From the NCBI GenBank assembly GCA_003598135.1, contig QZKA01000024.1, positions 619 to 64,618 of the forward strand: 64,000 bases of DNA, given 5' to 3'. Positions 2,110 through 18,893 of the stretch are shown piece by piece. The DNA comes from Candidatus Omnitrophota bacterium (GTDB lineage: Bacteria > Omnitrophota > Gorgyraeia > Gygaellales > Profunditerraquicolaceae). Every line of letters begins with the position of its first letter. Positions within the stretch are counted from its first letter, which is position 1. A program made the translations under genes and the position numbers. The notes beneath the pieces were generated by a model. The model was given only the letters and a program-made list of their open reading frames with translations, made no database searches and was not told where the DNA came from.

Positions 2110-2130
2110 GCTTTGTTAACCCTCCCTTTC

Positions 2131-2246
2131 GTATTGAGTATAGAGTATTGTGTATTGAGTGCGTTTAGCGTAAAACCGCTATATCTCAGATACTACCTTA
2201 ACCTAAGCCTTAACCTTAACCTAAGCCTTAACCTTAACCTGAACCT
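2131..2246. repeat. intergenic modular repeat, copy 1 (module A gtattgagtatagagtattgtgtattgagt plus module B, ccttaacctaagcc tandem units)
   Basis: The same modules recur at 5035, 9012, 11645, 16801 and 18555. This copy sits between the glyQS stop and the ppdK start. Confidence 0.8.
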
Positions 2247-2258
2247 TTATTTCTATTG

Positions 2259-3563
2259 TCATCCGGCCAGTTTCTGCAACAAGTATTCCTTCAGCGAATC
2301 GACGCTGATACGCTCCTGCTGCATTGAATCGCGGTCGCGGACAGTAACCTGCCTGTCTTGGAGTGATTGCACATCTACCGTCACGCAGAAGGGCGTACCT
2401 ACTTCGTCCTGCCGGCGATAGAGCTTTCCTATTGCGGCAGTGTCGTCATATACCGCAACCGTATGTTTCTTAAGGTCTTTTGAGATTGCGCGCGCCATTT
2501 CAACAATCTCAGGCCTGTTTTTCAAAAGTGGCAACACCGCCACTTTTACCGGCGCCAGATCCTTGTGAAGCTTAAGCACCACACGCAGATCGTCTTTAAC
2601 CTTCTCTTCGCTGTAGGCGTCGGTTAAAAACGCAAGGACTGTTCTGTCAACTCCGCCGGATGGCTCAATAATGTAGGGTAAGATCTTCTCTTTCTTGACG
2701 TCGTCGAAAAAGCGCAGGTCTTTCCCTGAGTATTGCGAATGCTGCTTTAGGTCAAAATCCGTACGGTTGGCAATTCCTTCAAGCTCCGACCATCCGAAAG
2801 GAAAATTGTATTCAATGTCGGTGCATGCCTTTGCATAGTGCGCCAGCTCGTCAGGGCCGTGTGCGCGCTTGCGTAAGTTTTCTCTTTTGATGCCAAGATC
2901 GCTATACCAATTGAAATGCAGTTCGATCCACTCTTGAAGCTTTTTATCTGCGTTCTCGGGCCTTACGAAATACTCTATTTCCATCTGCTCGAATTCGCGC
3001 GTCCTGAACGTTAAGTTTCCGGGAGTGATCTCATTACGGAATGCCTTGCCGACCTGCGCAAGGCCAAAAGGAAGCTTCGGGTGCCGTGAGTCAAGGATAT
3101 TCAAAAAATTGACAAACATACCCTGCGCGGTTTCAGGCCTTAGGTAAATGAGGTTTGCCTCATCGATGACTGCGCCCTGGTGGGTTTCAAACATTAAGTT
3201 AAACGGCCTGCTTTCGGTAAGCTCTCCCCTGCATTCCGGGCATTTGCTCTTGTCTTTCAGGTCCGCATCCTTAAACCTTTTTTTGCAGGATTTGCAGTCG
3301 CGCTTGAGGTCAAAAAAATTCTTCACGTGGCCGGACGCTTCCCAGACTTTCGGGTTCATCAGTATTGCTGCGTCCATCCCCAACATGTCATCGCGCTCAT
3401 AGACATTGGTTTTCCACCAGGCTCTCTTTACGTTGTTTTTAAGTTCAACGCCGTACGGGCCGTAATCCCAGGTATTGGCAAGCCCGCCGTAGATGTCGCT
3501 TCCCTGGAAGATAAATCCCCGGCGCTTACATAACGAAACGATCTTATCCATCATATCAGCCAT
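2259..3563 (-). CDS. glyQS: glycine--tRNA ligase (class II, GlyQS type)
   Basis: Translation MADMMDKIVSLCKRRGFIFQGSDIYGGLANTWDYGPYGVELKNNVKRAWW is typical GlyRS. The start was refined to the internal ATG at 3563, which overlaps the upstream gene by 8 nt. Confidence 0.88.
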   Translation of the reverse strand: MADMMDKIVSLCKRRGFIFQGSDIYGGLANTWDYGPYGVELKNNVKRAWWKTNVYERDDMLGMDAAILMNPKVWEASGHVKNFFDLKRDCKSCKKRFKDADLKDKSKCPECRGELTESRPFNLMFETHQGAVIDEANLIYLRPETAQGMFVNFLNILDSRHPKLPFGLAQVGKAFRNEITPGNLTFRTREFEQMEIEYFVRPENADKKLQEWIELHFNWYSDLGIKRENLRKRAHGPDELAHYAKACTDIEYNFPFGWSELEGIANRTDFDLKQHSQYSGKDLRFFDDVKKEKILPYIIEPSGGVDRTVLAFLTDAYSEEKVKDDLRVVLKLHKDLAPVKVAVLPLLKNRPEIVEMARAISKDLKKHTVAVYDDTAAIGKLYRRQDEVGTPFCVTVDVQSLQDRQVTVRDRDSMQQERISVDSLKEYLLQKLAG

Positions 3564-4965
3564 GTTCTTTTGCCTGCCCGTATTTATTGAATTCCTCCGA
3601 ATAGAACATCGCTGCTTCGGAATCGATGATGTCCATTTCAAGGTATCTTCGTATCGAGTCTGCCATAGATTGCATGCGGTATGCGCCGCTGGTCTGGATA
3701 ATGGTCGGCAGCTGGAAAAGCTCATCCTTACGGATGATCCTTTTTACCGCATCATTGGCAATGATGATTTCGGTCGCAAGGAGCCTGCCGGTGCGGTCTT
3801 TGCGCGGTATGAGCAGATGCGAGATTATCCCCTTAAGGCAGTTTGAAAGCTGCGAGAGGGCCTGTTTCCTCGCTTCAAGCGGGAAAAAGCTGACCAGGCG
3901 GTCAATTGCCTGCATGGTATTGGGCGAATGGAAAGAGGCGATTACTAAATATCCGGCTTCTGCCGCAATGAGCGCGGTCCTTACCGAATCGGCATCCTCA
4001 AGTTCTCCGATGACGATAATATTGGGGTCTTGTTTGAGGCTGCTTTTGATTGCTGCGGAAAAGGAATTTGTGTCAACGCCTACTTCACGCTGCTTGATGA
4101 TGCTTTTGATATTAGGATGCACGTATTCGATAGGCCGTTCAAGCGTGATAATAACCGCCCGTTTTTCGCGGTTAATCAGCTCAACCATCGCGGACATGGT
4201 AGTGGTTTTGCCGCTTCCCGTAGGCCCTACCAATAGCACCAAACCATCCCTCTGCCTGGCTAATTCCTGGACTACTGGGGGTATATTGAGCTCTTCAAAA
4301 GAAGAAACTTTTGTATTGATAAGCCTGAATGTCGCTTCCAGGAAGCCTCGTTGTTGGTGCACGTTGATCCTGAAACGGTTGCGGACATCGTATTGAATCC
4401 CGAAATCAAGCTCTTTTTCTTTTTCAAAGCGCCTTATCTGCTGCTTGGTCATAAGGCTGAATAAAATCTGAGGAATTTCTTCGGAGCTAAGGCTTGGGCC
4501 GTTTACTTCTTCCAATTCTCCGTTCACCCGTAAAACCGGGACGTGGTCTGCGAGTATATGCAGGTCAGAAGCGCCTCTTTTGATTGCAAGTTCCAGTAAT
4601 TTACCGACATTAAACCTTTCAATCAGCTGCTGGATTTCCTGTTTATGCGTGTCGTCGAGCTTGGTGAATACAGAACCTAAACCAAACGTCCTGCCTTCAT
4701 CCAGGGCCTCTATCCTTACAATCTTGATTGATGCCTGAATAGCGGTTTCGCTTTTGGGGAGGCGGAAACTGACAGTTGCTTCCATATTCAGAGGGAATAC
4801 CTCTTCGCTCTCCAGATAAATTCCGCCCGTGTTGATATTCGTGGCAAGGAGATTTCTTTCTTTTTTTACGTTCTCCTGGGAGTCCTGGAATGCAAATTTG
4901 ACGTGTATACGGGAATAGAGCCTGTAGTCTTTTCTTCTTTCCGGTATATCGTGCCGAGTCAGCAT
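3556..4965 (-). CDS. PilZ-domain / PilT-like type IV pilus retraction ATPase fusion
   Basis: N-terminal PilZ motifs: RRKDYR, then NINTGGIYL. The C-terminal PilT/GspE core has Walker A GPTGSGKTT. An AAGGAG ribosome-binding site precedes the ATG. Confidence 0.8.
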   Translation of the reverse strand: MLTRHDIPERRKDYRLYSRIHVKFAFQDSQENVKKERNLLATNINTGGIYLESEEVFPLNMEATVSFRLPKSETAIQASIKIVRIEALDEGRTFGLGSVFTKLDDTHKQEIQQLIERFNVGKLLELAIKRGASDLHILADHVPVLRVNGELEEVNGPSLSSEEIPQILFSLMTKQQIRRFEKEKELDFGIQYDVRNRFRINVHQQRGFLEATFRLINTKVSSFEELNIPPVVQELARQRDGLVLLVGPTGSGKTTTMSAMVELINREKRAVIITLERPIEYVHPNIKSIIKQREVGVDTNSFSAAIKSSLKQDPNIIVIGELEDADSVRTALIAAEAGYLVIASFHSPNTMQAIDRLVSFFPLEARKQALSQLSNCLKGIISHLLIPRKDRTGRLLATEIIIANDAVKRIIRKDELFQLPTIIQTSGAYRMQSMADSIRRYLEMDIIDSEAAMFYSEEFNKYGQAKEHG

Positions 4966-5034
4966 GGTATCTCCTTTTTAACGATAAACACAGAGTCGTA
5001 TTTTAGCATACATTGCAAAAAATCGCTATAGATT

Positions 5035-5135
5035 TCGTATTGAGTAGAGGCTCGCTGAAAAGACCGGCTACCTCAATCGTAACCTCAACCTCTCATTTTG
5101 CGTTAGCCTTGGCCTAAGCCTTAACCTTGGCCTTT
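5035..5135. repeat. intergenic modular repeat, copy 2 (A-like cgtattgagtagagg... plus taacctcaacctctcattttgcgttagccttggcctaagccttaacc)
   Basis: Shares the 'taacctcaacctctcattttgcgttagcc' block with the inverted copy at 9012-9135. Confidence 0.8.
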
Positions 5136-5852
5136 CTCTTTATTCTTTTGCAGCGTAGAAATAATTGTGAGTACCTTGTCTATATCCAGTTCTTTCTTCT
5201 TGTCCTTCAGGTACACCTTGAAAAATTCCTGCTTGCTATTTACTATGTCACAATTGAAGTAATTGCCTTCTTTCGTATAGTTGTAGGTAATAAACCCTCT
5301 TTTATCCGCTACGCTAAACCGTGCGATTTTTATGTTACTGCCCGGGCCAATGTCGGGAGTGAAGATGCTTTTCAGTATTACAAAGAGGGTGCTGGGCAGG
5401 TCTTTGATGTCAGGGGTTCTTGCGTTAAGGATGCGGCTTAAGAAATCGTAATTGTTTTTAAGGCTGTATTTTTTAAGCTGCGGGAAAAGCGACTGGAAGA
5501 AATCCGGATTTTGATACAACAGGTAGGCAATCGAATCCTTTTCGGTGCGTTTACGTTTTTTATAATAGGCCCTGTAAATCTGTTCTTTTATTACGAAGAA
5601 ATCCTTTGGGAGCGCTATTTCGATTTCTTCTATTTTATACCTCGCAAGGCTTAAGATATAGTTTTTGTCAATTTGGGGATTGGTAAAGTTTTGCGACGGT
5701 AGAATGCATAATACCGGTATTTTATTGCATGTACCGATACCCATTTCGACATAGGTTTTTAAAACGTACGGCTTGCCGAAGGTGGTCACTGTCAGGATAG
5801 CGGCGCTCCAGACTACTATCCACGGTAAAAATCTAGTGAGTTTCTTTTTCAT
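5121..5852 (-). CDS. hypothetical secreted protein (N-terminal signal peptide)
   Basis: MKKKLTRFLPWIVVWSAAILTVTTFG is a signal-like N-terminus. The gene is AT-rich and no known domain was recognised. Confidence 0.5.
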   Translation of the reverse strand: MKKKLTRFLPWIVVWSAAILTVTTFGKPYVLKTYVEMGIGTCNKIPVLCILPSQNFTNPQIDKNYILSLARYKIEEIEIALPKDFFVIKEQIYRAYYKKRKRTEKDSIAYLLYQNPDFFQSLFPQLKKYSLKNNYDFLSRILNARTPDIKDLPSTLFVILKSIFTPDIGPGSNIKIARFSVADKRGFITYNYTKEGNYFNCDIVNSKQEFFKVYLKDKKKELDIDKVLTIISTLQKNKEKGQG

Positions 5853-6690
5853 CGGGTATCGAATTTTTTAATTTTGAAAATTCTTCCTGCGATATCGAAA
5901 AGCTGTGTGCTTTATCGGGGAACGAGCCGCTTAAGACCTCATTTTTATACCGGATGATTGCTTCCCGCACCTGCGCGGCCACGTCGGCATATTGCATGAC
6001 GAATTTTGGTTTGAAGCCCTTAGACAGCCCGAGTATGTCATGTAGCACCAGGACCTGGCCGTCGCAATAAGGCCCTGCACCGATTCCAATAGTAGGGATA
6101 GAGAGTTTGTTCGTGATGAGTGAGGCGATTTTGTCGGGGACACACTCAAGCACGATAGAGAAACAGCCTGCGTCTTCGGATTCCTTTGCCTGTTGCAGAA
6201 GCTCTGTTGCGCGCTCAGCGTCTTTGCCCTGCACCTTAAACCCGCCGAGTTTATCCGCGGTCTGAGGGGTGAGGCCGATATGCCCCATCACCGGGATGCC
6301 TGCGTTGACAATCTCTTTTATCACAGTAAGGCATTGGGTAAACCATTCTACCTTTACCGCATCGCAGCCCCCTTCTTCTACCAGCCTTTTGGCGTTTCCT
6401 AGTGCCTTGTCGGGTTCAATCTGGTATGCCGAGAAAGGCATGTCAGCGATTACCAGCGCATGTGTTACTGCGCGGCTTACTGCTTTGGTATGATAGAGTA
6501 TTTCTTGTATTCCCACATCTTTTGTCGATTCCAGCCCTAACACTACGTTAGCCAGGGAATCACCTACAATAATTATATCGATACCTGACTGGTCGACCAG
6601 ATAGGCGAACGGGTAATCATAAGCGGTAAGGCAGGTACTTTTTTCTTTATTGTTCTTTTTGCTACGGATATCTTTAATTGTCAACTTCAT
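5833..6690 (-). CDS. panB: 3-methyl-2-oxobutanoate hydroxymethyltransferase
   Basis: LTAYDYPFA...IIVGDSLANVVLG...ADMPFSAY is the PanB signature. Confidence 0.88.
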   Translation of the reverse strand: MKLTIKDIRSKKNNKEKSTCLTAYDYPFAYLVDQSGIDIIIVGDSLANVVLGLESTKDVGIQEILYHTKAVSRAVTHALVIADMPFSAYQIEPDKALGNAKRLVEEGGCDAVKVEWFTQCLTVIKEIVNAGIPVMGHIGLTPQTADKLGGFKVQGKDAERATELLQQAKESEDAGCFSIVLECVPDKIASLITNKLSIPTIGIGAGPYCDGQVLVLHDILGLSKGFKPKFVMQYADVAAQVREAIIRYKNEVLSGSFPDKAHSFSISQEEFSKLKNSIPDEKETH

Positions 6691-6712
6691 GATAAAGGAT
6701 GGTTTCGTGAAG

Positions 6713-8116
6713 CTAGAAGCGCAGCGCAGGAATAAACAGTTGGGCTATTTTGAAATAAATTATTAACCCGCACACATCAACCACGCTTGTGGTAATTGGG
6801 CCTGCCAACACAGCAGGGTCGAGGCCTATTTTTTTCGAAAAAAACGGAAGAAATGTCCCTGTGGCAATAGCGAGTATCGCAATAAAAAGCATGCTTAAGC
6901 CAACGACTATGGCAAGCGTAAAGTCTTTTTGCAGCAGGAATGCCCTGCCGAAGGCGACGGTTCCTACTATTAGGCCCATCAGGAGGGCCGCGCTAAACTC
7001 AAGCTTGATAACCTTGAAGACATTCTTAAAATTCACGTCACCCGTGGCTAGTCCCCTTATAATCGTAATTGAAGTTTGGGCTCCGGCATTTCCGCCGGTG
7101 TCCAAAAGCATGGGGATGAAAAATGCCAGGGCTACGACAGAACTCAATGAATGTTCAAATGCTTTTAAGACTGTGCCGGTCAGAAAATCGAAAATCAACA
7201 GCAGTATCAGCCATCCTGCCCGCCTTTTCACCAATTCAGCGGTGGTGGCGCGCGCGTAACTGATAATCTGGCCACCCTTGGCATCCATTTTACCGATTTC
7301 GTATATATCTTTGGTAGCCTCTTTTTCTATGATATCGACTACGTCATCAATGGTGATAATCCCTACCAGGACGTCGTGGGTATCAACTACCGGCGCATCA
7401 AGTAAATCATATTTTTTGAAATAGCGGGCAACTTCAACGATATCGGTATCGGCATTCACTTTGATCAGGTCAGCGCTTTGCATAATTTCTTTTATCGCGA
7501 TATCGGGAGGGGCCTTTAATAAATCCTGCAGCGCAATACAGCCTCTTAGTTTATGGCCTTCGTCAGTTACAAATACCGAATAAATGTCCCTTGCGTATTC
7601 AGCCCTTAGGTTTTCCTGGATAGAAAGGATAGCTTGCCTGGCAGTCATATCTTTTTTCAACTCGACCATGTCTGTGGTCATCAAACTGCCTGCAGTCCCT
7701 TCGGGATACACCAGTAATTCGCGCAAGTCCTGCGCCTCTTCTTTATTGACCAGGTTGAACAATTTCTTCGAAACCTTATCAGGAAGCTCCTTAAAAAGGT
7801 CGGCTCTTTCGTCAGGAGACATTTCGTTAATAATCTGTGAGATCTCGGTATTGTTAAGGTTGTTTAAAATGAAGGATTGTTCCGAAAACGGGAGGGCTTC
7901 AAATACCTCTATGGCTTTTCTGGAGCTCAAGAGCTTAAATACCAGGATCTTGTCATTAGCCTCAAGGTGACGCCACCCTTCAGCCAGGTCAATGGACCGC
8001 ATTGTTTTGAGCACTAACTTAAGGCCGTTAAAGTCCTTCTTGGAAAGCAGCTGCTTTATTTCGGGAAGGAATAACGCAAATATGTCGACATTGCTTTTTT
8101 TCATACCGTTTTTCAT
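6713..8116 (-). CDS. mgtE: magnesium transporter MgtE
   Basis: MgtE N-domain, tandem CBS region and C-terminal membrane domain, as read from the translation. Confidence 0.85.
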   Translation of the reverse strand: MKNGMKKSNVDIFALFLPEIKQLLSKKDFNGLKLVLKTMRSIDLAEGWRHLEANDKILVFKLLSSRKAIEVFEALPFSEQSFILNNLNNTEISQIINEMSPDERADLFKELPDKVSKKLFNLVNKEEAQDLRELLVYPEGTAGSLMTTDMVELKKDMTARQAILSIQENLRAEYARDIYSVFVTDEGHKLRGCIALQDLLKAPPDIAIKEIMQSADLIKVNADTDIVEVARYFKKYDLLDAPVVDTHDVLVGIITIDDVVDIIEKEATKDIYEIGKMDAKGGQIISYARATTAELVKRRAGWLILLLIFDFLTGTVLKAFEHSLSSVVALAFFIPMLLDTGGNAGAQTSITIIRGLATGDVNFKNVFKVIKLEFSAALLMGLIVGTVAFGRAFLLQKDFTLAIVVGLSMLFIAILAIATGTFLPFFSKKIGLDPAVLAGPITTSVVDVCGLIIYFKIAQLFIPALRF

Positions 8117-9144
8117 GGCACAGCTACCATTTGACCTTCGTTATCACTCTCTACAATGCCGGCTTTTGCGGGGGGATATTTTTTTAACAGCTCTATCCCC
8201 TTCTCCCTGCCTAACACAAATAGGGAAGTAGCCAGCGCATCTGCGGTAAGGCAATCCTCTGCAATGACTGTCACTGAAATTACGCCGCCCTTGGCAGGAG
8301 CTCCTGTTTTGGGGTCAAGAATATGAGAAAAGACTTCATCTCTATTCTTAAAATACTGTTCATAATCCCCTGAAGTGGCTATGGCGCTGTTTTCCATGCT
8401 CATGGTGCTTAAGAAATTCTGTGAACGAGGGTTTTGCACTGCCACTTTCCATGGCGTGCCGAACTTGTTACCTAAACAATATATATCCCCGCCTGTATTA
8501 ATCAAGCAATTTTTTACGCCTGCGGCTTTTATTTTTTTGACTGCCGAATCAACGGCATACCCTTTGGCAATCGCACCCAGGTCAACAGCCATCCCGGGAA
8601 TACTAAATTCTATCACATTATTGTTTTTATGAAAAATAATTTTATCCATACCTACGCGCTTTGACGCCTTCTCAATTTCTTTTCTTTTCGGGACCTTATA
8701 CTGTGTATTGGAAAATCCCCAAATATTCATCAACGGGCCTACCGTAACATCGAATGCGCCGCCTGAGGCTTGCCAGAATTCCTTAGACTTCTGCATAATA
8801 TACCATGTCTCCTTGCTTGCGGCCACCTTGCCGGTTTTGTTCAGCCGGGAAATTTCGCTCTTCTCATCGTATTTGCTTAATAGGGATTCGATCCTCTTTA
8901 TCTCCTCAAAGGCAATGGCAGGCGCCCGTTCGTCAGGTGAAACAACTTCAACAAAGGTGCCCATCATGACGCGAGTTTCCTTATATAGCTTCTGGGGTTG
9001 ACAACCGTTAAATAAGGTTAAGGCCGAGGCTAAGGCCAAGGCTAACGCAAAATGAGAGGTTGAGGTTAAGGCTGAGGTAGCCGGTTTTTCTAGCGTGCTT
9101 CTACTCAATACCCTGTACCCTGCACTCAATACTGAATTTTTCAT
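8113..9144 (-). CDS. apbE: FAD:protein FMN transferase (ApbE family); start ambiguous (9144 or upstream 9318, or internal MMG)
   Basis: ATSGDYEQYF and the TRVMMGTFVEVV start of the mature domain identify ApbE. The N-terminal 40-50 aa, including the putative lipoprotein signal LALALASALTLFNGC, are encoded by repeat copy 3. Confidence 0.8.
   Translation of the reverse strand: MKNSVLSAGYRVLSRSTLEKPATSALTSTSHFALALALASALTLFNGCQPQKLYKETRVMMGTFVEVVSPDERAPAIAFEEIKRIESLLSKYDEKSEISRLNKTGKVAASKETWYIMQKSKEFWQASGGAFDVTVGPLMNIWGFSNTQYKVPKRKEIEKASKRVGMDKIIFHKNNNVIEFSIPGMAVDLGAIAKGYAVDSAVKKIKAAGVKNCLINTGGDIYCLGNKFGTPWKVAVQNPRSQNFLSTMSMENSAIATSGDYEQYFKNRDEVFSHILDPKTGAPAKGGVISVTVIAEDCLTADALATSLFVLGREKGIELLKKYPPAKAGIVESDNEGQMVAVP
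9012..9135. repeat. intergenic modular repeat, copy 3 (inverted orientation; overlaps the apbE 5' end)
   Basis: ggctaacgcaaaatgagaggttgaggtta... and ctactcaataccctgtaccctgcactcaatac are reverse complements of the copy 2 and module A sequences. Confidence 0.8.
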
Positions 9145-10850
9145 TTGTTTATCGCTTTTAGCAGTTCTCCCAATGGCAGTGTGTTGAGCACGTCTTTGGA
9201 AGTAAGCCAGCCCCTGCGGGCAACTGCGATACCGAACCTGGCTGCCTGAAGATGTTCTATGGAATGCGAATCGGTATTGATAGCCAGCTTCACTCCTCGT
9301 TCTTTTGCGCGGCGGCAATGGCTGTCGTTTAAGTCAAGCCGCAGCGGGAAAGAATTAATTTCTAAGGCGGTATTGGTATCTTTGGCTTGCGTGAGGATTG
9401 CGTCAAAATCTATTTCATAGGCATTGCGCGTTCCCCAGAGCCTGCCAGTGGGATGAGAAATAATGTGGACGTATTTGTTATCACAGGCTTTCAGCATCCT
9501 ATGGGTAAGTTTTTCTTTAGACTGTTTAAAGCCGCTATGGATAGCTGCAATGACGATATCGAATTCCTTTAAGATTTCGTCAGGATAATCAAGGCCTCCT
9601 TGCGAATCTATGTCTACCTCTGTCCCGTAAAGGACTTTGCACCGGCGTAATGTGTTATTGACTTTTTCGATTTCGCGCTTTTTCTTCAGAAGGTCTTTTA
9701 CCGAAAGGCCGTTTGCAATCGTAAGCCCTTGCGAATGGTCAGTTACAGCGATATAGGAATACCCTTGTCTTATTGCAGCATGCGCCATCTCTTGTATGGT
9801 ATGATTACCATCTGACCAGCTTGAGTGGGTATGCAAATCCCCCCTTAGATCATCCTGCGTAATCAATTTGGGTAGTTTTCCTTTTCTGGCAAGTTCGATT
9901 TCACCCGTATCCTCTCTTAGTTCCGGTTCGATATATTCCATCCCCAGCAGTTTGAAGATCTCCCCTTCTTTCCTTCCCGCAACAAAAGCCTTTCCTCTGA
10001 AAACGCCGTATTCGTTAATCTTTAAACTTTTCCGTATTGCTATTTGCCTTAATTTGATATTAAAATTTTTTGAGCCGGTAAAATACAGAAGCGCTGCCCC
10101 AAACGATTTTTCCATGACTACGCGGCAATCAACCTGGATGCCGTCATCCGTGCGCACGGATGATTTTGTGCTGCCTGAGGCAATAACCTCTTGTACCTGA
10201 GGCAGGCTTGTGAAGTGATGCATGATTTTTTGGGGTTTTTCCGAGACAATGAGGATATCGATATCCTTGATTGTTTCTTTCTGGCGCCGCAAGGAGCCTG
10301 CACAGGAAATCTTTTTAACCCCGGGTAAGTCCTGAAGCGGCTTTAGGAAGCTCTCAGCGACCTGCCAGGCAACCGAAAGCGGCATACGTTCTTTACCGGC
10401 TTTAAAAAGGCTTATCCCTGCGGTGATATTTTCAATAGTCTTTTCCTTGATGCCGAATATTCCCTTCAGCTTACCTTTAGCAATCGCAGACTCAAGGCCA
10501 GCCACATTTTGTATACGCAGCTCATCGTAAAGCAGCTTAGCGGTTTTTGGTCCGACTGAAGGGACGCGCAGCAACTCAAGCAGGCCGTCAGGGAATGATT
10601 TTTTCAATTCTTCGTACGCCCTAACCTTGCCCGTTCCGATAAATTCATTGATTTTCCTTTCCAGGTCTTCACCGATGCCGGGAATCTCTCTGAGCCTGCC
10701 TTCTTGCGCAATGATTTCGATATCTTCGTTGAGCCCCTCGATGGCCTGCGCTGCACGTTCATATGCCCTAGTGCGGAATGGGTTATCTTGGCGTATTTCA
10801 AACAGCTGGGATAGATTCCTGAAGGTTTCGGCGATTTTTAGGTTTAACAT
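9141..10850 (-). CDS. polX: DNA polymerase X family protein with C-terminal PHP domain
   Basis: HhH/pol-beta-like N-terminal half, then the PHP motif HTHSSWSDGNHTIQEMAHAA...VTDHSQ. Confidence 0.85.
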   Translation of the reverse strand: MLNLKIAETFRNLSQLFEIRQDNPFRTRAYERAAQAIEGLNEDIEIIAQEGRLREIPGIGEDLERKINEFIGTGKVRAYEELKKSFPDGLLELLRVPSVGPKTAKLLYDELRIQNVAGLESAIAKGKLKGIFGIKEKTIENITAGISLFKAGKERMPLSVAWQVAESFLKPLQDLPGVKKISCAGSLRRQKETIKDIDILIVSEKPQKIMHHFTSLPQVQEVIASGSTKSSVRTDDGIQVDCRVVMEKSFGAALLYFTGSKNFNIKLRQIAIRKSLKINEYGVFRGKAFVAGRKEGEIFKLLGMEYIEPELREDTGEIELARKGKLPKLITQDDLRGDLHTHSSWSDGNHTIQEMAHAAIRQGYSYIAVTDHSQGLTIANGLSVKDLLKKKREIEKVNNTLRRCKVLYGTEVDIDSQGGLDYPDEILKEFDIVIAAIHSGFKQSKEKLTHRMLKACDNKYVHIISHPTGRLWGTRNAYEIDFDAILTQAKDTNTALEINSFPLRLDLNDSHCRRAKERGVKLAINTDSHSIEHLQAARFGIAVARRGWLTSKDVLNTLPLGELLKAINK

Positions 10851-10864
10851 CTGAAAAACGAAGA

Positions 10865-11638
10865 TTACGCGCGCAAAGGAAGAGCGTCTGCCTTTTGCAT
10901 CCCTTCTAATACCCTTTGCGCCTTGAAACTTCTTTCAAGGTGATAGGTAAGGAAGGCGTTTAAGATTAAATTTAGTTCCCTCTTAATCTGCGGATTTATC
11001 CCTAAATTAAGGTTATTCTTCAGCTCATTCTTCTCGATATGCAGGATAGTGGCAACCGTGCCCCGGAAAATAAGGCGCGCATTTTTGTCTTTATGGTTAC
11101 AGGTAGTGCAGATGAGGCCGCCGAGCGCTAAACTGAATTTTGATTGGCTTAAGATTTTATTGCCGCAGGATACGCAGGAATCCAGGTGAGGCTTAAAGCC
11201 CGATAAGGAGAGAAGCTTTATTTTGAAAATAGTGGTGATTTTCTCCGGATTGGCACATGACCCCAGCTCTTGAAGCGAGGAATGAGCGAGCGAGAATATC
11301 TCTTCGTTCTTTTCTTCGGCAGGCATTACCGCGTGTAATAATTCTATCATTACGCTTGCGAGGCTTACTCTCGTAACATCGCGGCGGATTGCATCAAAAT
11401 TGTTCTTTAGGTCGCACTGACTAACCAGCTGGATATCCGAATTCTGTTTCCGGTAGAAAATAATCTCATTGAGCGAAAATAGATCCACGGAGCTGGCGAA
11501 TTTCTTCGGTTCAGTGCGTATCCCTTTTAATAGGCCGCTGATTTTTCCGAACTCAAGGGTGAAGAAATCCGCAATGAGGGACGTTTCACGAAAGGGCCGG
11601 CGGTTGAGTACTATCGCTTCTGTTTTATGGATCGACAT
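10865..11638 (-). CDS. recO: DNA repair protein RecO
   Basis: N-terminal OB fold (EAIVLNRRPFRETSLIADFFT) and a C-terminal CxxC...CxxC zinc motif. Confidence 0.85.
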   Translation of the reverse strand: MSIHKTEAIVLNRRPFRETSLIADFFTLEFGKISGLLKGIRTEPKKFASSVDLFSLNEIIFYRKQNSDIQLVSQCDLKNNFDAIRRDVTRVSLASVMIELLHAVMPAEEKNEEIFSLAHSSLQELGSCANPEKITTIFKIKLLSLSGFKPHLDSCVSCGNKILSQSKFSLALGGLICTTCNHKDKNARLIFRGTVATILHIEKNELKNNLNLGINPQIKRELNLILNAFLTYHLERSFKAQRVLEGMQKADALPLRA

Positions 11639-11644
11639 TTTGTG

Positions 11645-12080
11645 GTAGAAGGTTAAGGTTAAAGTTAAGTAAGGTTAAGGCCTAGGCTAAGGTTAAGTTT
11701 CGTATTGAGTATAGAGTATTGTGTATTGAGTACAATGACAAATACCAAAGCACCGATGACAGGAATGACAAATCACAAATGACAAAACTCAAATTCCAAA
11801 TAAATCCCAATGCCCAAAGGGCCAATGATAAATTCTAAACGACAAAACCTAATGGGGCGATAATCAATAGCCTATAGTCGATAGACCCTGCAAATGAAAT
11901 TTGCGCATTTATGCCTTGTCATTACGAGAGCTGCCTTAACCTCAACCTCGACCTTACTTAGCCTTAACCTTGACCTTAGCCTATTATAGTACAGTGTCCT
12001 GTATGGGTTATGCGTACAGCGTTACGCGCCGTTCTCCGTACGCATATCGCACTCAATACTCTGTACTCTATACTCACTAC
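11645..12080. mobile_element. composite MITE-like repeat element (~435 bp) with modules A and B at both ends in inverted orientation and a unique core
   Basis: Left end aaggttaagg... then gtattgagtatagagtattgtgtattgagt. Right end ccttaacctcaacc... then cactcaatactctgtactctatactcac. The core atgacaaataccaaagc...caaatgacaaaactcaaattccaaataaatcccaatgcccaaagg recurs inverted at 18700-18860. Confidence 0.6.
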
Positions 12081-12508
12081 TAACAAATATTATTTTTCTT
12101 CAAAATCCCCACTGCCCTTCTGTGCATTTCTTTTTTGCCTTTGGCAGTTTTATCATCAAAGCCCTGCAGATGAAGGATGCCGTGGGCTATATACAAGTAA
12201 AGTTCAAAAAGGGGCGAAGTACCAAACTCAGCCGCATTACGGAACGCCGTTTCAGTCGAAATAATAATATCTGCAGAAAACTCCTCTTTTTTTACGCCAA
12301 GCTCAAACGCTAATACGTCAGTGGGTTTTTTCTTGCCAAGAAAGCGGGAATTCAGTTTTTGTATCTGCGCGTCGTTTACGAAGCAAAAAGTCAATTCACC
12401 GGATTTTTTTAAGTCCCTGCGGGATAAGGCGCTAAAGGTTAACTTCTTTATCCTTGTCGGATTGATGGGAATTTTCTTTTGCAGGTTTTTTATGATTATT
12501 CTCAACAT
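12080..12508 (-). CDS. ybeY: endoribonuclease YbeY (rRNA maturation factor)
   Basis: HGILHLQGFDD matches the HxxxHxxxxxH zinc motif, and the N-terminus aligns with YbeY proteins. The start was chosen at MLRIII, which leaves about 77 nt of overlap with the upstream gene. Confidence 0.8.
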   Translation of the reverse strand: MLRIIIKNLQKKIPINPTRIKKLTFSALSRRDLKKSGELTFCFVNDAQIQKLNSRFLGKKKPTDVLAFELGVKKEEFSADIIISTETAFRNAAEFGTSPLFELYLYIAHGILHLQGFDDKTAKGKKEMHRRAVGILKKNNIC

Positions 12509-13877
12509 TCGCCTCTGGATAGGTGATGCGCACATGGTAGATACTGTTCAGGATGCGGATAAACACCTTTGAAATCTGTTCCAAATCCTTTAAGGTAAGC
12601 TCGCATTCATCAAGCTGGCCGTCGATAAATTTGTTATTGATGATCTTATGAACCACTTCTTCAATCTTGGCAGGGTTCGGCTCTTTTAAGGCGCGAGTAG
12701 CAGCCTCTACCGAATCCGCCAGCAATACCACAGCAGTCTCTTTGCTGTTTGGTTTCGGCCCGGGGTAACGGAACCCTTCCTCCTGGATTTTTTGGTCCTC
12801 TTCTACGCTTTCCACTGCGCGGCGGTAAAAATAATAGACAAGGCTGTTGCCATGGTGTTGATGGATGAAGTTTATGATTGCAGGGTTTAGCCTGCTGCGT
12901 TTTGCTAATTCGATGCCTTCTTTTACATGGTTCATAATTACCAGCTTGCTCATCGTGGGAGAAAGCTCGTCATGTTTACTTTGGCTTAAGTCCTGGTTTT
13001 CGCTGAAGTATTCAGGCTTTTCCAGCTTTCCGATGTCGTGGTAATATGCGCCTATGCGCGCAAGGAGCGCATTGGCATTGATGGCCTCGCAGGCAGCTTC
13101 AGAGAGATTGCCAACAATAAGGCTGTGGTGGTAAGTCCCCGGCACTTCAAGCATAAGGCGATGCAGGAGCGGCTGATTAAAATCGGATAATTCAAGAAGG
13201 GTAATATTGGTGATGGTTTTAAAGAGGTATTCAAAAATAGACAAAGTCCCCAATACGATGATGCTGCAGGCAAGGCCGTTTAAAAAGAACGCAGAATATA
13301 CAGTAGTGTGTTTTATAAGGTCGCCCGGATAAAGCAATAGATACGATAAGGCCTGGACGAAACCGATGATAAGCCCCGCCTTGATAATGGTGAACCTTCT
13401 CCTTGCCCCGACTACAAGTGTGATCGAAAGGATACCGCTGATAAGGAACAAAACCTCGACCAGAAGTTTGTTGCCAAAAATGAATGCCAGGGAAACGGCT
13501 GCGGCAAGATTGAGCAAAAACGGTATGGTAAGGCGAGGGAACAAAAGCGTTGCCAGCATAGGAAAGGCAGCGTAAGGTAGATAAAAAATCGGCAATTTCT
13601 GCTGTGCGAGCCAATAGGCGGTGACAAAATTAATCACAAAAAGAAACGAAGGATTTAATAGTTTATAGGCGAGCCGGTTATGCGTAAGGTAAAGATATTT
13701 AAAATAAATCGTCAGCGACAGCAGGAATAATCCCAAGAGGGTGTTGATATGCAGGACATAACAGAGCGTAAAAACAAGGATAGTCCCAAATAAGAATCCG
13801 ACGATTTCGCGGGTGCGCATCGAAGGGCTCATGCCCTGAGGCTGCTTTTTTTTGTTATTGACGGTTTGCGTGTTCAT
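12432..13877 (-). CDS. 7TM receptor with intracellular HD hydrolase domain (YqfF/PgpH-like)
   Basis: About 7 N-terminal TM helices followed by the HD domain HHSLIVGNLSE...GAYYHDIGK. It sits between phoH and ybeY as in Firmicutes. The start could be 13877, 13832 or 13820. Confidence 0.75.
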   Translation of the reverse strand: MNTQTVNNKKKQPQGMSPSMRTREIVGFLFGTILVFTLCYVLHINTLLGLFLLSLTIYFKYLYLTHNRLAYKLLNPSFLFVINFVTAYWLAQQKLPIFYLPYAAFPMLATLLFPRLTIPFLLNLAAAVSLAFIFGNKLLVEVLFLISGILSITLVVGARRRFTIIKAGLIIGFVQALSYLLLYPGDLIKHTTVYSAFFLNGLACSIIVLGTLSIFEYLFKTITNITLLELSDFNQPLLHRLMLEVPGTYHHSLIVGNLSEAACEAINANALLARIGAYYHDIGKLEKPEYFSENQDLSQSKHDELSPTMSKLVIMNHVKEGIELAKRSRLNPAIINFIHQHHGNSLVYYFYRRAVESVEEDQKIQEEGFRYPGPKPNSKETAVVLLADSVEAATRALKEPNPAKIEEVVHKIINNKFIDGQLDECELTLKDLEQISKVFIRILNSIYHVRITYPEANVENNHKKPAKENSHQSDKDKEVNL

Positions 13878-14844
13878 ATGCCTGGATTATTTTCTGGACA
13901 AGTTCGTGCCTGACGATATCCTCTCCTGTCAAAAATACGAATTTGATGCCTTCTATGTCGCGCAATATCTCCTGCGCCTGCAACAGCCCGATAGGCTTGC
14001 CGTCGGGCAGGTCGCTCTGCGTAATATCTCCGGTAATGACCGCTTTTGAATAAAACCCGATCCGGGTCAAAAACATTTTCATCTGCTCTGCGGTCGCGTT
14101 CTGTGCTTCATCGAGGACAATAAAGGCGTCGTTTAAGGTCCTGCCTCTCATATATGCAAGCGGCGCCACTTCGATGATCCCTGTTTCGATATATTTTTCT
14201 ATCCTTTCGGCATCCATCATGTCGTAAAGGGCATCATAGAGCGGCCGCAGATAGGGTGAGATTTTTTCATACATGTCCCCTGGCAAAAAACCAAGAGATT
14301 CACCGGCTTCGATTGCAGGCCGGGTAAGGATGATACGGCGCACTTCCTGTTTCTTGAGGGCCTCTACGGCTTGGGCCATTGCCAGGTATGTTTTTCCGGT
14401 ACCTGCTGGCCCGACTCCAAAAACTATGTCGTACTTCTTGATTGAATCAATGTATTCCCGCTGGCCCTTGGTCTTTGGCCCGATTGTCTTTTCGATGCCG
14501 AGCTTAGTTGAAGTTAAGGGCACCCTCTGATGTTTCTTTTCTCTCTTCAATTCTTCCCTTGCGTAATGCGGCACGCGCGGTTCTTCCTGCGGGCTCCTAA
14601 TGGAATCAAGTAGATCTTCTAGGTATTTGCGTGCCTTGCTGATCCTGACAGATGAACCGGATATCTGGAGATGGTTATCATGTATGGTCAGGCGGACCTT
14701 CAGTTCTTCTTCCAGCCTTTTTAGGCTTTCATCAAACCGCCCGCACAGCTGCTGTACTTCCGCAATGCTTTCTAACTTAATGATTTTTTTCACTGTCCCG
14801 TTATTTAAATTTCTGCATGCCTTCCGTAGCAACGGGCCCTTCAA
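13855..14844 (-). CDS. phoH: PhoH-like ATPase (YbeZ)
   Basis: GVGPAGTGKTYLAMAQAV...ILTRPAIEAGESLGFLPGD. Confidence 0.85.
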   Translation of the reverse strand: MKGPLLRKACRNLNNGTVKKIIKLESIAEVQQLCGRFDESLKRLEEELKVRLTIHDNHLQISGSSVRISKARKYLEDLLDSIRSPQEEPRVPHYAREELKREKKHQRVPLTSTKLGIEKTIGPKTKGQREYIDSIKKYDIVFGVGPAGTGKTYLAMAQAVEALKKQEVRRIILTRPAIEAGESLGFLPGDMYEKISPYLRPLYDALYDMMDAERIEKYIETGIIEVAPLAYMRGRTLNDAFIVLDEAQNATAEQMKMFLTRIGFYSKAVITGDITQSDLPDGKPIGLLQAQEILRDIEGIKFVFLTGEDIVRHELVQKIIQAYEHANRQ

Positions 14845-15388
14845 CAGGTATAACCAGTGTTTGTCCGGGGTAAATCTTATTGGGAGCTTTTAGGGTATTT
14901 TTGTTCGCCTCAAAGATCTTTTGCCATTTTTTTGTCGTTCCAAAAAATTTAAGGGAGATTTTTTGAAGCGTATCGCTTTTCTGGACTTTGTAGTTTTGAA
15001 AACTTGCTTTTTTGGCTGCTTGCGCGGGTTCGGCAATTTCAGGCGCATAGCTACTTGAGATATACCCACGGTTGCCCCACGCTTCTTTGTCTTCGGTTTT
15101 TTCGGCAATAGTTCCCCTCATAGCGACCTTTGAAGCGCTCTCTGAAGACGCAGGTGTTTTTTCAAATTTGAGCGGTGAATGTAATTCCATCTCAACCACC
15201 CTTAAGGAACGGGTAGCTTTACGGTCGGCCTTCTCGCCTGCAACAGGCCTGCCCTTAAGATAGCCACGGTTTCCCTGCAGATCCTGATCAACCCTGTTTT
15301 TTGTCGTTTGATACGTCCTCACCACGCAACCGGAAAGCAAAAACGCCGATGCCAAGAGCACAAAATACATTTGTTTTAGCGAATTCAT
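14801..15388 (-). CDS. LysM-domain lipoprotein
   Basis: Lipoprotein signal MNSLKQMYFVLLASAFLLSGC and a C-terminal LysM domain (YKVQKSDTLQKISLKFFGTTKKWQKIFEANKN...YPGQTLVIP). Confidence 0.7.
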   Translation of the reverse strand: MNSLKQMYFVLLASAFLLSGCVVRTYQTTKNRVDQDLQGNRGYLKGRPVAGEKADRKATRSLRVVEMELHSPLKFEKTPASSESASKVAMRGTIAEKTEDKEAWGNRGYISSSYAPEIAEPAQAAKKASFQNYKVQKSDTLQKISLKFFGTTKKWQKIFEANKNTLKAPNKIYPGQTLVIPVEGPVATEGMQKFK

Positions 15389-15389
15389 A

Positions 15390-16784
15390 CTAAGCCTCCT
15401 TTTTTTTGGCTAAATTGATTTTTAATTCTTTGAGCTGCCTTGCGTCAACCTCTGAAGGTGCTTGTGTAAGCGGACAGAATGCCTTCTGCGTCTTCGGGAA
15501 GCCGATTACTTCCCGGATACTCGCCTCATTGGCAAGTATTGCCAAGAGCCTATCTATGCCGAATGCGATACCTCCGTGCGGAGGCGCGCCGTATTGAAAC
15601 GCATCCAGAAGAAAACCGAAACGCTTGCGTGTTTCTTCATGCTGAATGCCGATTATCTTGAAAATCATTTCCTGAAGCGCCTGTTCGTGGATCCTTATCG
15701 AGCCGGAACCGATTTCCATGCCGTTTAATACTAGGTCATAAGAACGGGATAACGCCTCTGCTGGATTCGTTTCAAGCTTTTCAGCCTGGAGCGGATGTGG
15801 CGCAGTAAAAGGATGGTGTTCGCTCTCCCAGCGTTTTTCTTCATCATTATATTTAAACAGCGGAAAATCAACAACCCAGGCAAAGGCTAATTCCAGGCCC
15901 GACTCCTGCCGTAAGTCCGGCTTGTCGCTGGAATACCTGCGCATCGCCTCTTTATAAGAGATGCGCGGGAACGGCGTTTTTAACTCGATACCCTTTACCT
16001 TCTTTATTATTAGATACATCAATTCCTCTGTCAAACTAAATATATCCTCTTCGTTGACGAAGGACATTTCGATATCCAGCTGGGTAAATTCTGGCTGGCG
16101 GTCAGCGCGCAGGTCTTCGTCGCGGAAACATTTTGCGATCTGGTAATACCGTTCAATGCCTGAGACCATAAGGATCTGCTTGAATAGCTGCGGCGACTGG
16201 GGAAGCGCGTAAAATTGACCGGGGTTAAGCCTTGAAGGGACTAAATAATCACGCGCGCCTTCCGGTGTCGATTTAGTAAGTATGGGGGTTTCACATTCAA
16301 TAAAGTCCTTTTCCGCCAAAAAGGCCCTCATGACCTTATACACCTTGTCCCTCAAGGTAAAATTAGAAAAAACGTTTTTTCTGCGTAGGTCAAGATACCG
16401 GTACTTAAGCCGTAGTTCTTCGTCAATAGGTAGGTCCTCTTTTATCTCAAACGGCGGGGTGAGGCTGGGGTTGAGGATCTTAAGCCCGGTTGCAAGAATT
16501 TCTATTTCTCCCGTAGGCAACTTTGGATTGAGGGTACCTTGTGGTCTTTGATTTACCTTGCCGTTGACCATGACTACGTATTCATCCCGCAGCGTCTGTG
16601 CGGACTTATACGCCTCGCCGATATCTTTGGGGATAAAAACTACCTGGGTAAGGCCATACCTGTCCCTTATATCTATAAAAATAAGCTTACCGTGGTCGCG
16701 CCTGCTGGCAACCCAGCCGCATAGCGTTACTTCGCTACCGATGTCTTTCGCCGTTAATTCACCGCATGTGTGGGAACGTAGCAT
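15390..16784 (-). CDS. aspS: aspartate--tRNA ligase, short form lacking the GAD insertion domain
   Basis: Class IIb core with the bacterial-type motif FRDEDLRADRQPEFTQLDIEMSF and GGIAFGIDRL. At 464 aa it is well short of the ~590 aa typical of bacterial AspRS. Confidence 0.8.
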   Translation of the reverse strand: MLRSHTCGELTAKDIGSEVTLCGWVASRRDHGKLIFIDIRDRYGLTQVVFIPKDIGEAYKSAQTLRDEYVVMVNGKVNQRPQGTLNPKLPTGEIEILATGLKILNPSLTPPFEIKEDLPIDEELRLKYRYLDLRRKNVFSNFTLRDKVYKVMRAFLAEKDFIECETPILTKSTPEGARDYLVPSRLNPGQFYALPQSPQLFKQILMVSGIERYYQIAKCFRDEDLRADRQPEFTQLDIEMSFVNEEDIFSLTEELMYLIIKKVKGIELKTPFPRISYKEAMRRYSSDKPDLRQESGLELAFAWVVDFPLFKYNDEEKRWESEHHPFTAPHPLQAEKLETNPAEALSRSYDLVLNGMEIGSGSIRIHEQALQEMIFKIIGIQHEETRKRFGFLLDAFQYGAPPHGGIAFGIDRLLAILANEASIREVIGFPKTQKAFCPLTQAPSEVDARQLKELKINLAKKKEA

Positions 16785-16800
16785 TTTGTTAAAAAATTAC

Positions 16801-16950
16801 TTAAGGTTGAGGTTAAGGCTAAAGGTTAAGTAAGGTCAAGGATTAGGTAGTGAGTTTAGTGTATGGTGGTATGTTATTGGCCAAAAGAAAAACAACACCA
16901 ATTACCTTACCCAACAACCAAACCGACAACCTTACCTTTACCTAACTACT
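16801..16950. repeat. intergenic modular repeat, copy 5 (aaggttaagg-type units and degenerate ccttacc units)
   Basis: ttaaggttgaggttaaggctaaaggttaagtaaggtcaagg lies between the aspS start and the hisS stop. Confidence 0.7.
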
Positions 16951-18205: not shown

Positions 18206-18208
18206 AGA

Positions 18209-18481
18209 TTATTTTATCTTTTTCTTCATTTCGAGGCCGGGCTTGAAGACTACTACTTTGCGGGGCGGAACAGGAACGACTTGACCTGTGCGCGGATTTC
18301 TGCCGGTTCGGCTTCTTCTCTGTTTTATTTTAAAAACGCCGAAATTCCTCAGCTCTATTTTTTCCCCGCGCACCAGAGCGTCTATTATGCAGTCGAAACA
18401 TTTTTGCACAACTCTTTTTACATCGGTTTGCTTCAGGTTAGTATCGTCAGAAATTTTCAGGATGATATCTTTTTTAGTCAT
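18209..18481 (-). CDS. hup: HU/IHF family DNA-binding protein
   Basis: MTKKDIILKISDDTNLKQTDVKRVV...GRNPRTGQVVPVPPRKVVVFKPG. Confidence 0.85.
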   Translation of the reverse strand: MTKKDIILKISDDTNLKQTDVKRVVQKCFDCIIDALVRGEKIELRNFGVFKIKQRRSRTGRNPRTGQVVPVPPRKVVVFKPGLEMKKKIK

Positions 18482-18554
18482 TTTTCCCTCCATTTTTTTC
18501 AGGCTAACTACGCAAGTATAGTATCAACAAAATGTTACGATGTCAATAGAATTT

Positions 18555-18892: not shown

Positions 18893-18893
18893 A

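Follow-up and report, generated by a model that had tools for sequence, protein, structure and literature searches.

For ApbE, a FAD:protein FMN transferase, periplasmic localisation matters for function (PMC12052999). In the classical ApbE/Ftp lipoproteins (ApbE of Salmonella/E. coli and V. cholerae, and Ftp of T. pallidum), the ApbE domain follows an SPII-type leader ending in a lipidated Cys. The same arrangement is predicted for the ApbE-family protein described here, but its leader is roughly double the usual length, with n- and h-regions that are tandem repeats translated into low-complexity sequence and a lipobox that reads F-N-G-C.

Repeats that are read as protein have been described in other bacteria. 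Rickettsia palindromic elements (RPEs) and other MITEs are short dispersed repeats found in ORFs, where they are in frame and translated within housekeeping proteins (PMC10969869). The present repeat is likewise dispersed, short, in frame in an ORF and read as protein. However, RPEs are ~150-bp palindromic mobile elements inside mature protein regions, whereas this element is built from one array of 7-nt and one of 6-nt tandem units, has neither terminal inverted repeats nor evidence of transposition, and supplies a predicted cleavable targeting signal and no part of the mature protein. In Neisseria opa genes, CTCTT coding repeats are located in the 5' region encoding the leader peptide (PMC3960869). 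A short tandem repeat in the leader-encoding 5' region is also what is seen here, but pentamers in opa change the reading frame and so cause phase variation, while the core described here is made of frame-neutral hexamers that are in frame in all lineages and, unlike the opa units, are members of a family of intergenic repeats. In the opa leader, it is the hydrophobic core that the CTCTT units encode. In a laboratory selection by Kaiser et al. (Science, 1987), random or non-native sequences reportedly acted as signal peptides. This precedent explains how arbitrary DNA, when its translation is first basic and then hydrophobic, can take the place of a native leader; unlike that selection, the present case is natural and is retained across three diverged lineages. 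That signal peptides are loosely constrained and that repeats land in frame inside genes is already known, and this locus joins both.

The window analysed here is a 64,000-nt stretch of contig QZKA01000024.1 from an uncultured Candidatus Omnitrophota bacterium. ApbE sits in a minus-strand ORF (8113..9318) whose first in-frame ATG by ORF translation is at 9144-9142, and translation of 8113-9144 on the minus strand gives a 343-aa protein beginning MKNSVLSAGYRVLSRSTLEKPATSALTSTSHFALALALASALTLFNGC, which is identical to P0001 (NCBI/JGI), labelled by NCBI as FAD:protein FMN transferase from a Candidatus Omnitrophota MAG. Pfam PF02424 covers residues 61-325 (E 8e-90; 301 bits vs a cut-off of 25.6), and homologues in the PDB include 2o18, 3pnd, 4ifu and 6nxi (E 1e-50 to 1e-32). 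The score against the NCBIfam E. coli ApbE equivalog was below the cut-off (165 vs 498), which places the protein in the ApbE family but outside the enterobacterial equivalog. Directly upstream on the same strand is polX (9141..10850), encoding a family X DNA polymerase with a PHP domain, and its TGA stop (9141-9143) overlaps the ApbE ATG (9142-9144) as ATGA; no SD-like motif was seen by eye ahead of ATG 9144. Since ApbE starts at -4 to +8 nt from the polX stop in nine other Omnitrophota loci (L007, L009, L011-L015, L017 and L018), with L008 (~110-nt spacer) and L019 (88-nt spacer) as exceptions, ATG 9144 is regarded as the orthologous start. The initial annotation had named this ATG, overlapping the polX stop, as the only in-frame Met giving a hydrophobic leader and MMGTFVEVV as the following candidate start; the translation agrees with the former, and the next Met residues are indeed M60/M61 (8962-8967), where the Pfam domain begins. 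Only Met codons had been weighed there, and in-frame TTG codons at 9129, 9108 and 9039 are formal start candidates too.

ApbE codons 1-44 are a copy of the heptamer-linker-hexamer repeat of the window. The leader DNA at 9013-9132 fits the order of an A-linker-B family consisting of GTATTGN heptamers, a linker with ACCGGCTACCTCA and RCCTNR hexamers. On the minus strand, module A (9098..9132) contains five heptamers (GTATTGA, GTGCAGG, GTACAGG, GTATTGA and GTAGAAG) and encodes VLSAGYRVLSRS of the n-region; the linker (9079..9097; CACGCTAGAAAAACCGGCT) encodes TLEKPA and is common, by alignment, to the ApbE leader of L001 and to a copy at 5052-5070; and module B (9013..9078) contains 11 hexamers (3 canonical, 3 degenerate and 5 canonical, the canonical units being at 9061-9078 and 9013-9042). 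Module B reads ACC-TCA/GCC-TTA and encodes TSALTSTSHFALALALASALTL, which forms the end of the n-region and the hydrophobic core, and the frame used for the hexamers (GCC-TTA/ACC-TTA) is the only one that is both stop-free and hydrophobic, giving an Ala/Leu/Thr core. The repeat similarity stops at 9013, one codon pair ahead of the F-N-G-C lipobox. With heptamer and hexamer units mapped inside the leader and 84 of 98 nt matching a second copy at 5037-5134, the earlier claim that the leader directly translates repeat modules A and B holds.

The translated repeat has the charged and hydrophobic parts of a signal peptide. The n-region has a net charge of about +3 by hand count (K2, R11, R15 and K20 vs E19), and those of L001 and L002 are more basic. 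The h-region FALALALASALTLF comprises the 14 residues directly before the lipobox, a length inside the range of about 7-22 expected for SPII signal peptides, and its best 12-residue Kyte-Doolittle mean is 2.29, vs an orthologue median of 2.46. The leader has 47 residues ahead of the Cys, vs an orthologue median of 25. A search of 5.8 billion proteins with the 52-residue leader, seeking other genes that start with this repeat translation, gave no scoring match.

The first sequence past the repeat is the lipobox (9001..9012, minus strand), in which Cys48 is encoded by TGT at 9003-9001, followed by the conserved mature N-terminus QPQKLYKETRV (8968..9000, minus strand), located upstream of M60/M61. 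Cys48 aligns with the lipobox Cys in ~110 of 120 Omnitrophota orthologues, within the motif [LIF]-x-G-C-Q-x-x-x-L-Y-K-[DE]-x-R-V-M-M-G-T. G is found at -1 in 102 of the 110, while only 3 of the 110 have F at -3 and only 3 have N at -2. F-N-G-C departs from the usual L-[CS]-G-C of the orthologues and from the classical [LVI]-[ASTVI]-[GAS]-C. Classical lipobox regular expressions were set aside as a criterion, since the non-classical orthologue consensus L-C-G-C already violates some of them and failing them is uninformative. Over the 19 codons from G47, 10 synonymous and 3 non-synonymous differences from L007 were counted, and the mostly synonymous pattern is similar against L009, L012, L014 and L015; over the 13 codons upstream of M60, the split from L007 by eye is 8 synonymous and 3 non-synonymous. 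In addition, the PDB homologues 7esa and 7mgt align from ApbE residues 52-53. The conserved lipobox Cys and the mostly synonymous change upstream of M60 indicate that translation begins inside or upstream of the repeat.

The repeat is located at the same polX-ApbE junction in three lineages: the window, L001, and a lineage represented by three assemblies (L002, L003 and L005), which are in frame with an equal heptamer count. In each of them the stretch from ATG to Cys is free of stops and its length is divisible by 3 (144 nt in the window, 171 nt in L001 and 129 nt in L002/L005), whereas frame +1 of this segment contains 4-8 stops; with only three lineages, the chance of such in-frame conservation is about 1 in 9. 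Identity of the mature ApbE among the three lineages is 72-81%. Module B of the window leader is 24 nt longer than in L001/L002, which equals four extra hexamers. Because the repeat is common to L001 and L002/L005, it is not a recent event in the window genome, and only the extra core hexamers are window-specific.

Relatives were also collected by scanning with degenerate DNA patterns: the scan of a genome collection brought in L005 as a new close relative, along with several distant relatives, and in metagenome contigs the only hit of a clade-specific pattern was the JGI contig already known. L014-L017 (chosen on contig size), together with L018 and L019 as the two nearest outgroups, were sampled without regard to leader length, while L011-L013 were picked for their long annotated N-termini, so that the open frames of the latter are not independent evidence. 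Conventional leaders were found in distant and nearest-outgroup orthologues (L007, L008, L015, L017 and L018), and in L018, the nearest outgroup, a plain leader of 16 residues starts at a polX-overlapping ATGA. A short conventional leader at the corresponding ATG in the nearest outgroups indicates that the repeat lies within the ancestral leader and is read through, and that the leader is not truncated.

Taken from sequence comparison, ApbE is probably a lipoprotein precursor with a signal peptide translated from the repeat, starting at ATG 9144 or, less likely, at TTG 9108. The initial annotation had offered two options. The first, that the repeat was recruited as a signal peptide, is favoured by the conserved Cys and GCQ..LYKETRVMMGT, by the repeat being the sole sequence upstream of them, and by the open frame in three lineages. 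The second, that the repeat inserted into and truncated the native leader, stands as to insertion and fails as to truncation, since the repeat is read through. Orthologues with an unrelated conventional leader, together with a start mapping downstream of the repeat, had been named there as the contrary outcome; such leaders do occur elsewhere, but the start here does not map downstream of the repeat.

Other copies of the repeat were found in the window. The leader DNA at 9014-9111 is identical at 84 of 98 nt (86%) to a copy in reverse orientation at 5037-5134, and only these two sites contain the 21-mer ACCTCTCATTTTGCGTTAGCC (0 expected by chance). The paralogous A-linker-B copy (5030..5134, plus strand) is located in the spacer between a 243-aa gene and a T2SSE/PilZ ATPase gene, antisense to both, where it stands in place of a palindromic core found in the orthologous spacers of L001 and L002; in the same frame it has TAA where the leader reads TTA. 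A third, more diverged A-linker-B copy (2124..2251, plus strand) is also antisense to its flanking genes, of which the downstream one, read by eye, is taken by us to be a candidate PPDK gene. GTATTGA-type arrays are present in intergenic DNA at 2131-2158, 11702-11729, 18555-18575 and 18864-18891.

The 86% match probably reflects exchange within the genome, and possibly this exchange ran from the leader to the intergenic copy. The segment at 5037-5134 would then be a gene-conversion copy of the ApbE leader, whose hexamer-rich core expanded in situ by slippage instead of being replaced by an intergenic repeat, an account that we regard as tenable while leaning slightly against it. The ApbE leader of L001 contains the linker AAACCGGCTACCTCAGCC and that of L002 a diverged form of it; it is missing from their T2SSE-upstream spacers, in which a palindromic core and a long A' array occupy the place of the window's leader-like segment; moreover, TCTCATTTTGCGTTAG aligns loosely to unique h-region DNA of L001/L002. 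On the other hand, the diverged copy at 2124-2251 points to the three-module unit as an older dispersed family and not a mere duplicate of the leader, leader modules A and B both belong to families that are intergenic elsewhere, and with 64 kb of the genome visible a donor copy may be located elsewhere. The question concerns origin alone, and either answer is compatible with a functional leader.

A repeat-encoded leader may also start further downstream. Under this alternative, initiation at the in-frame TTG of codon 13 (9106..9108, minus strand; MSRSTLEKPATS...), or at the further TTG at 9127-9129, would leave the heptamers as an untranslated spacer that is open by chance, and TTG 9108 would give the 35-residue leader MSRSTLEKPATSALTSTSHFALALALASALTLFNG followed by the Cys. 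An in-frame TTG is found in the last module A heptamer in all three lineages, L001 also has an internal ATG (MRRASCALRKRPRGKPATS...), GCAGGG was read by eye 9 nt upstream of TTG 9108, and a leader of 35-36 residues is nearer the orthologue range. However, throughout the phylum sample the conserved place for the start is the ATG at the polX stop, and ahead of the TTG the length differences between lineages (9, 42 and 51 nt by hand count, in the heptamer array) are all multiples of 3 and the segment is free of stops, as expected only if it is translated. A TTG start is thus considered unlikely.

Far less probable is that the repeat destroyed the native leader, leaving an ApbE that starts at M60/M61 and is cytoplasmic or en route to loss, with the upstream frame as a leftover. 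The orthologue of L002/L003 (P0003) is called from MMGT by the ENA and JGI gene callers, the Pfam domain begins at residue 61, the lipobox is atypical (F-N-G-C), and cytosolic ApbEs are known in some bacteria. An SD-like AAGGAA, read by eye 9 nt upstream of the M60 ATG-ATG, is accounted for by conserved Lys-Glu codons. Against such a start, GCQPQKLYKETRV upstream of M60 is conserved as protein with synonymous change in the DNA, three lineages with 72-81% identity in mature ApbE have kept the frame open, and structural homologues align from residue 52, so that a leaderless M60 start is judged from these comparisons to be very unlikely.

Other roles for the segment were rejected: an RNA element in the polX-ApbE junction (fold z = +0.78; no Rfam match), a promoter or sense-strand terminator between polX and ApbE (none found), a MITE/RPE-type mobile element (no inverted termini, modules A and B not mutually complementary, the same leader RNA fold z and the same position in three lineages), and opa-like phase variation by heptamer slippage (all three lineages in frame by scripted translation; equal heptamer count in the three assemblies L002, L003 and L005).

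For the preferred reading, a repeat-encoded leader started at ATG 9144, the following course is proposed. The repeat would have entered in the common ancestor of the three lineages, after codons 4-7 and ahead of the lipobox, and may have survived because the n- and h-regions of signal peptides tolerate almost any basic-then-hydrophobic sequence. Initiation would take place at the ancestral ATG overlapping the polX stop (ATGA) by termination-reinitiation coupling, or less likely at TTG 9108, and the ribosome would pass through the in-frame, stop-free heptamer-linker-hexamer copy. The heptamers and linker would give a long, net-positive n-region, and the hexamers, read as GCC-TTA/ACC-TTA, the Ala/Leu/Thr hydrophobic core. 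At the native lipobox that follows, lipidation of Cys48 and cleavage of the leader would leave ApbE anchored at the periplasmic face. A further rebuilding of the core from hexamers, by a frame-neutral addition of 24 nt, would have taken place in the window lineage.

Leader repeats of other kinds were observed elsewhere in Omnitrophota, namely AT-rich palindromes (L019 and L013) and, for L012 and L014, hairpins with an A-rich arm that gives a Lys-rich n-region and a T-rich arm that gives a Phe/Leu core. That unrelated intergenic repeat families have repeatedly supplied, by read-through, the n- and h-regions of the ApbE leader at this junction across Omnitrophota is a tentative idea, and we hold it to be rather doubtful.

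A dispersed intergenic tandem repeat that supplies the charged and hydrophobic parts of a leader, and is kept across three lineages, would be a concrete route for leader turnover. Gene callers differ on the start of ApbE (343 aa vs 284 aa), and starts placed downstream of repeats would give a wrong predicted localisation, not only of ApbE but probably also of other exported proteins in candidate phyla rich in repeats; the localisation of ApbE decides whether extracytosolic flavoproteins mature. If the tentative idea of recurrent repeat read-through holds genome-wide, new signal peptides would be continually available from repeat-rich spacers, and the length of the hydrophobic core could be tuned without loss of frame by slippage of 6-nt units.

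ApbE (FAD:protein FMN transferase) is encoded at 8113-9144 on the minus strand, as are RecO (10865-11638), PolX (9141-10850), MgtE (6713-8116) and PanB (5833-6690), and its ATG (9144-9142) overlaps the TGA of polX (9143-9141). Translation from this ATG gave a 343-aa product identical to the database copy P0001 (NCBI: FAD:protein FMN transferase, Candidatus Omnitrophota MAG), confirming the overlap and the protein quoted in the initial annotation. Residues 61-325 make up the Pfam ApbE domain, with the second candidate start (M60/M61, MMGT) right at its edge. Compared with PMC12052999, the window protein is predicted to be an ordinary ApbE-family lipoprotein.

The proposal that the ApbE leader (the residues before the lipobox Cys48) is a translation of repeat modules A and B was borne out. 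Two types of short tandem array occur in the first 19 kb of the window: module A is built of heptamers (GTATTGA/GTATAGA) and module B of hexamers (GCCTTA/ACCTTA). The leader consists of five heptamer units (9098-9132), a linker of 19 nt (9079-9097) and eleven hexamer units (9013-9078), and repeat similarity stops at 9013, directly ahead of the F-N-G-C codons (9012-9001). Leader positions 9014-9111 were identical at 84 of 98 nt to an oppositely oriented copy (5037-5134), and one 21-mer was exact at these two sites only (chance expectation, none). Module A and B arrays also occupy spacers at about 2124-2263, 5030-5144, 11644-12083, 16802-16930 and 18548-18893; together with the palindromes they are limited to the first about 19 kb, in six spacers, and no A or B array was detected past 18.9 kb of the 64-kb window. 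A distinct 26-nt family (AACAAAAAATGCAATAATTACAACAT; 7 copies, 72-100% identity, 49473-59930) is sited in a series of apparently paralogous ORFs (about 306-326 aa, minus strand).

Of the 120 best matches, all Omnitrophota-type ApbEs, about 110 have the motif [LIF]-x-G-C-Q-x-x-x-L-Y-K-[DE]-x-R-V-M-M-G-T directly after a hydrophobic segment, and Cys48 aligned with their lipobox cysteine. The alignment with solved ApbE structures begins at window residue 52-53. Between G-C and M60, the DNA differs from distant syntenic orthologues mostly by synonymous changes (against L007, eight synonymous and three non-synonymous in the 13 codons upstream of M60, counted by eye, and ten and three in all 19 compared codons, counted by script), indicating protein-level selection on this segment. 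A start at M60 would drop this conserved, translated sequence, and since the repeat is the only sequence upstream of Cys48, translation would have to span it.

In the collections searched, there were three close lineages only: the window, L001 (= L006, GCA_040754255.1; ApbE identity 72% for the whole protein and 78% for its mature portion), and L002/L003/L004 plus L005 (about 80% identity). In all three, synteny and the ATGA overlap with polX were found, and heptamers, linker and hexamers are read through to the lipobox (leaders: window, MKNSVLSAGYRVLSRSTLEKPATSALTSTSHFALALALASALTLFNGC; L001, MKQPIRSVLRIAYRVSRYASSVMRRASCALRKRPRGKPATSALTLAFCSSLVILCGC; L002, MKQPIHCVLRIAYCVLRNTERKKLTTSALTLAFCSSLVILCGC). 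The ATG-to-Cys distances (144, 171 and 129 nt) are each divisible by three despite the 7-nt arrays, with no stops in frame 0 and 4-8 in frame +1. The hexamers are always read as GCC-TTA/ACC-TTA (Ala-Leu/Thr-Leu); their remaining frames yield stops in one case and Leu-Asn-Leu-Ser in the other, and the 5037-5134 paralogue has TAA at the position of the leader's TTA. In L001 and L002 hexamer coding stops halfway through the hydrophobic core and the remainder (FCSSLVILCGC) is unique sequence, whereas the window has 24 extra nt of hexamers in the core, without the unique part.

Signal-peptide quality was assessed by a surrogate, hydropathy plus orthologue lipobox frequencies, with charge counted by hand. 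Net charge in the n-region is about +3, and mean hydropathy of the h-region (FALALALASALTLF) is 2.29 (orthologue median, 2.46). Gly at -1 is typical (102/110 orthologues), while Phe at -3 and Asn at -2 are rare (3/110 each), and the leader has 47 residues against an orthologue median of 25. Function as a signal peptide is thus plausible from sequence. The conserved Cys48, the segment to M60 and the read-through in three lineages support recruitment of the repeat as the ApbE signal peptide, which we consider probable.

No Shine-Dalgarno-like motif was seen by eye ahead of ATG 9144, and this start would depend on coupling to polX termination. A recruited leader could instead begin at a TTG, available in frame at 9129 and 9108. 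We regard this as unlikely, since the heptamer part is in frame and stop-free in all three lineages and the ATG position is conserved phylum-wide, which favours ATG 9144; with three lineages, though, such a pattern would arise by chance about 1 time in 9. In a broader sample, L007, L009, L011-L015, L017 and L018 place the ApbE start codon -4 to +8 nt from the stop of polX, indicating that ATG 9144 is the ancestral start position. In L018, the nearest outgroup (63% identity), an ATGA overlap opens a plain leader of 16 residues, and conventional leaders (18-24 residues before Cys) are present in L007, L015 and L017. These leaders imply that the A-linker-B unit was inserted in an ancestor shared by the three lineages, downstream of the first 4-7 leader codons and ahead of the lipobox, and has been read through ever since. 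The alternative of an insertion truncating the native leader is therefore upheld for the insertion and not for the truncation.

Leader RNA structure did not exceed shuffled controls (z = +0.78), Rfam gave no match in window 1-20000, and neither a promoter nor a sense-strand terminator was found in 8800-9400. A MITE-type element is unsupported because inverted termini are absent, and opa-like phase variation is argued against by equal heptamer counts in three L002-lineage assemblies. RPE/MITE in-frame insertions (PMC10969869) likewise place a repeat inside an ORF, but the window element consists of two tandem arrays and would provide a targeting signal that is cleaved off. Functionally, the nearest parallel is the CTCTT coding repeat of the Neisseria opa leader (PMC3960869), although the window repeat is frame-neutral and apparently stable.

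In L001 and L002 the orthologous T2SSE-upstream spacers contain a long A' array together with a palindromic core; at the equivalent place the window has the leader-like linker and h-region in reverse complement. The linker is common to the leaders of ApbE in L001 and the window. The 86% match (9014-9111/5037-5134) would need within-genome exchange after the lineages split, with leader-to-spacer transfer somewhat more parsimonious than spacer-to-leader transfer. An unseen third copy is a possible donor, because the visible genome is only 64 kb. A third, diverged A-linker-B copy (2124-2251) shows that the unit belongs to an older dispersed family. Unlike the fast-evolving repeats beside it, the stretch of about 65 nt ahead of the T2SSE/PilZ ATPase ATG is nearly invariant in three genomes (window 4966-5030; L001 10255-10325; L002 7705-7775), with an extended -10-like TGATAGAAT (TGCTAAAAT in the window) and a AAAAAGGAGAT Shine-Dalgarno seen by eye.

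Elsewhere in Omnitrophota, ApbE leaders are encoded wholly or partly by other repeats, so that the theme appears to recur. The second arm of an AT-rich palindrome (1440-1560) encodes the leader (M)EIGIYLVVLVLLVVLGFLCGC in L019 (62% identity); the first arm of this palindrome occupies the polX-ApbE spacer, and its 15-mer TTGGGATTTATTTGG exactly matches window intergenic palindrome cores (11796-11810, 18732-18746). In L014 (2014-2069) and L012 (4039-4103) a hairpin makes up the leader; its A-rich arm encodes a Lys-rich n-region and its T-rich arm a Phe/Leu-rich hydrophobic core. Other repeats are read through in the n-regions of L013 (AT-rich palindrome, 4001-4200), L011 (heptamers plus GC hairpin, 4001-4170) and L009 (tandem 24-nt unit encoding CHCEPRRG twice, about 2380-2500), three loci selected partly for long N-termini, which illustrate the pattern rather than test it statistically. 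The L011 ApbE ORF (378 aa vs about 320) extends at its 3' end into paired hairpin repeats (GGGACACTTCTT...AAGAAGTGTCCC; 5027-5137, again 3.8 kb downstream at 8875-8979), so in this phylum both the starts and the ends of ORFs reach into repeats.

A composite layout is conserved in the ybeY-recO spacer (window 11639-12083; L001 3267-3506; L002 606-932), with the same module order in the orthologous spacers of these two other genomes. On the + strand of the window, this order is B' (11644-11697), A (11698-11731), a long imperfect palindrome as core (about 11734-11930), B (11933-11983) and A' (12046-12083). Pairing is between A and A' and between B' and B, and the two pairings interleave rather than nest. 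Arrays in the orientation of the 243-aa gene are located after gene ends and their units contain TAA/TAG; the stop of this gene (TAA, 5121-5123, minus strand) lies inside the first TAAGGN hexamer unit (window 5106-5129), as does that of its L001 orthologue (10040-10049). The linker contains a small hairpin (GGCTACCTCAGCC, 9070-9082, + strand), and its ApbE-antisense strand reads GGCTGAGGTAGCC then GGTTTTTC, resembling a terminator. In the antisense-oriented copies (5030-5134, 2124-2251), this terminator-like linker would fall just 3' of the preceding gene's stop, a placement that hints at a possible job of the unit in spacers.
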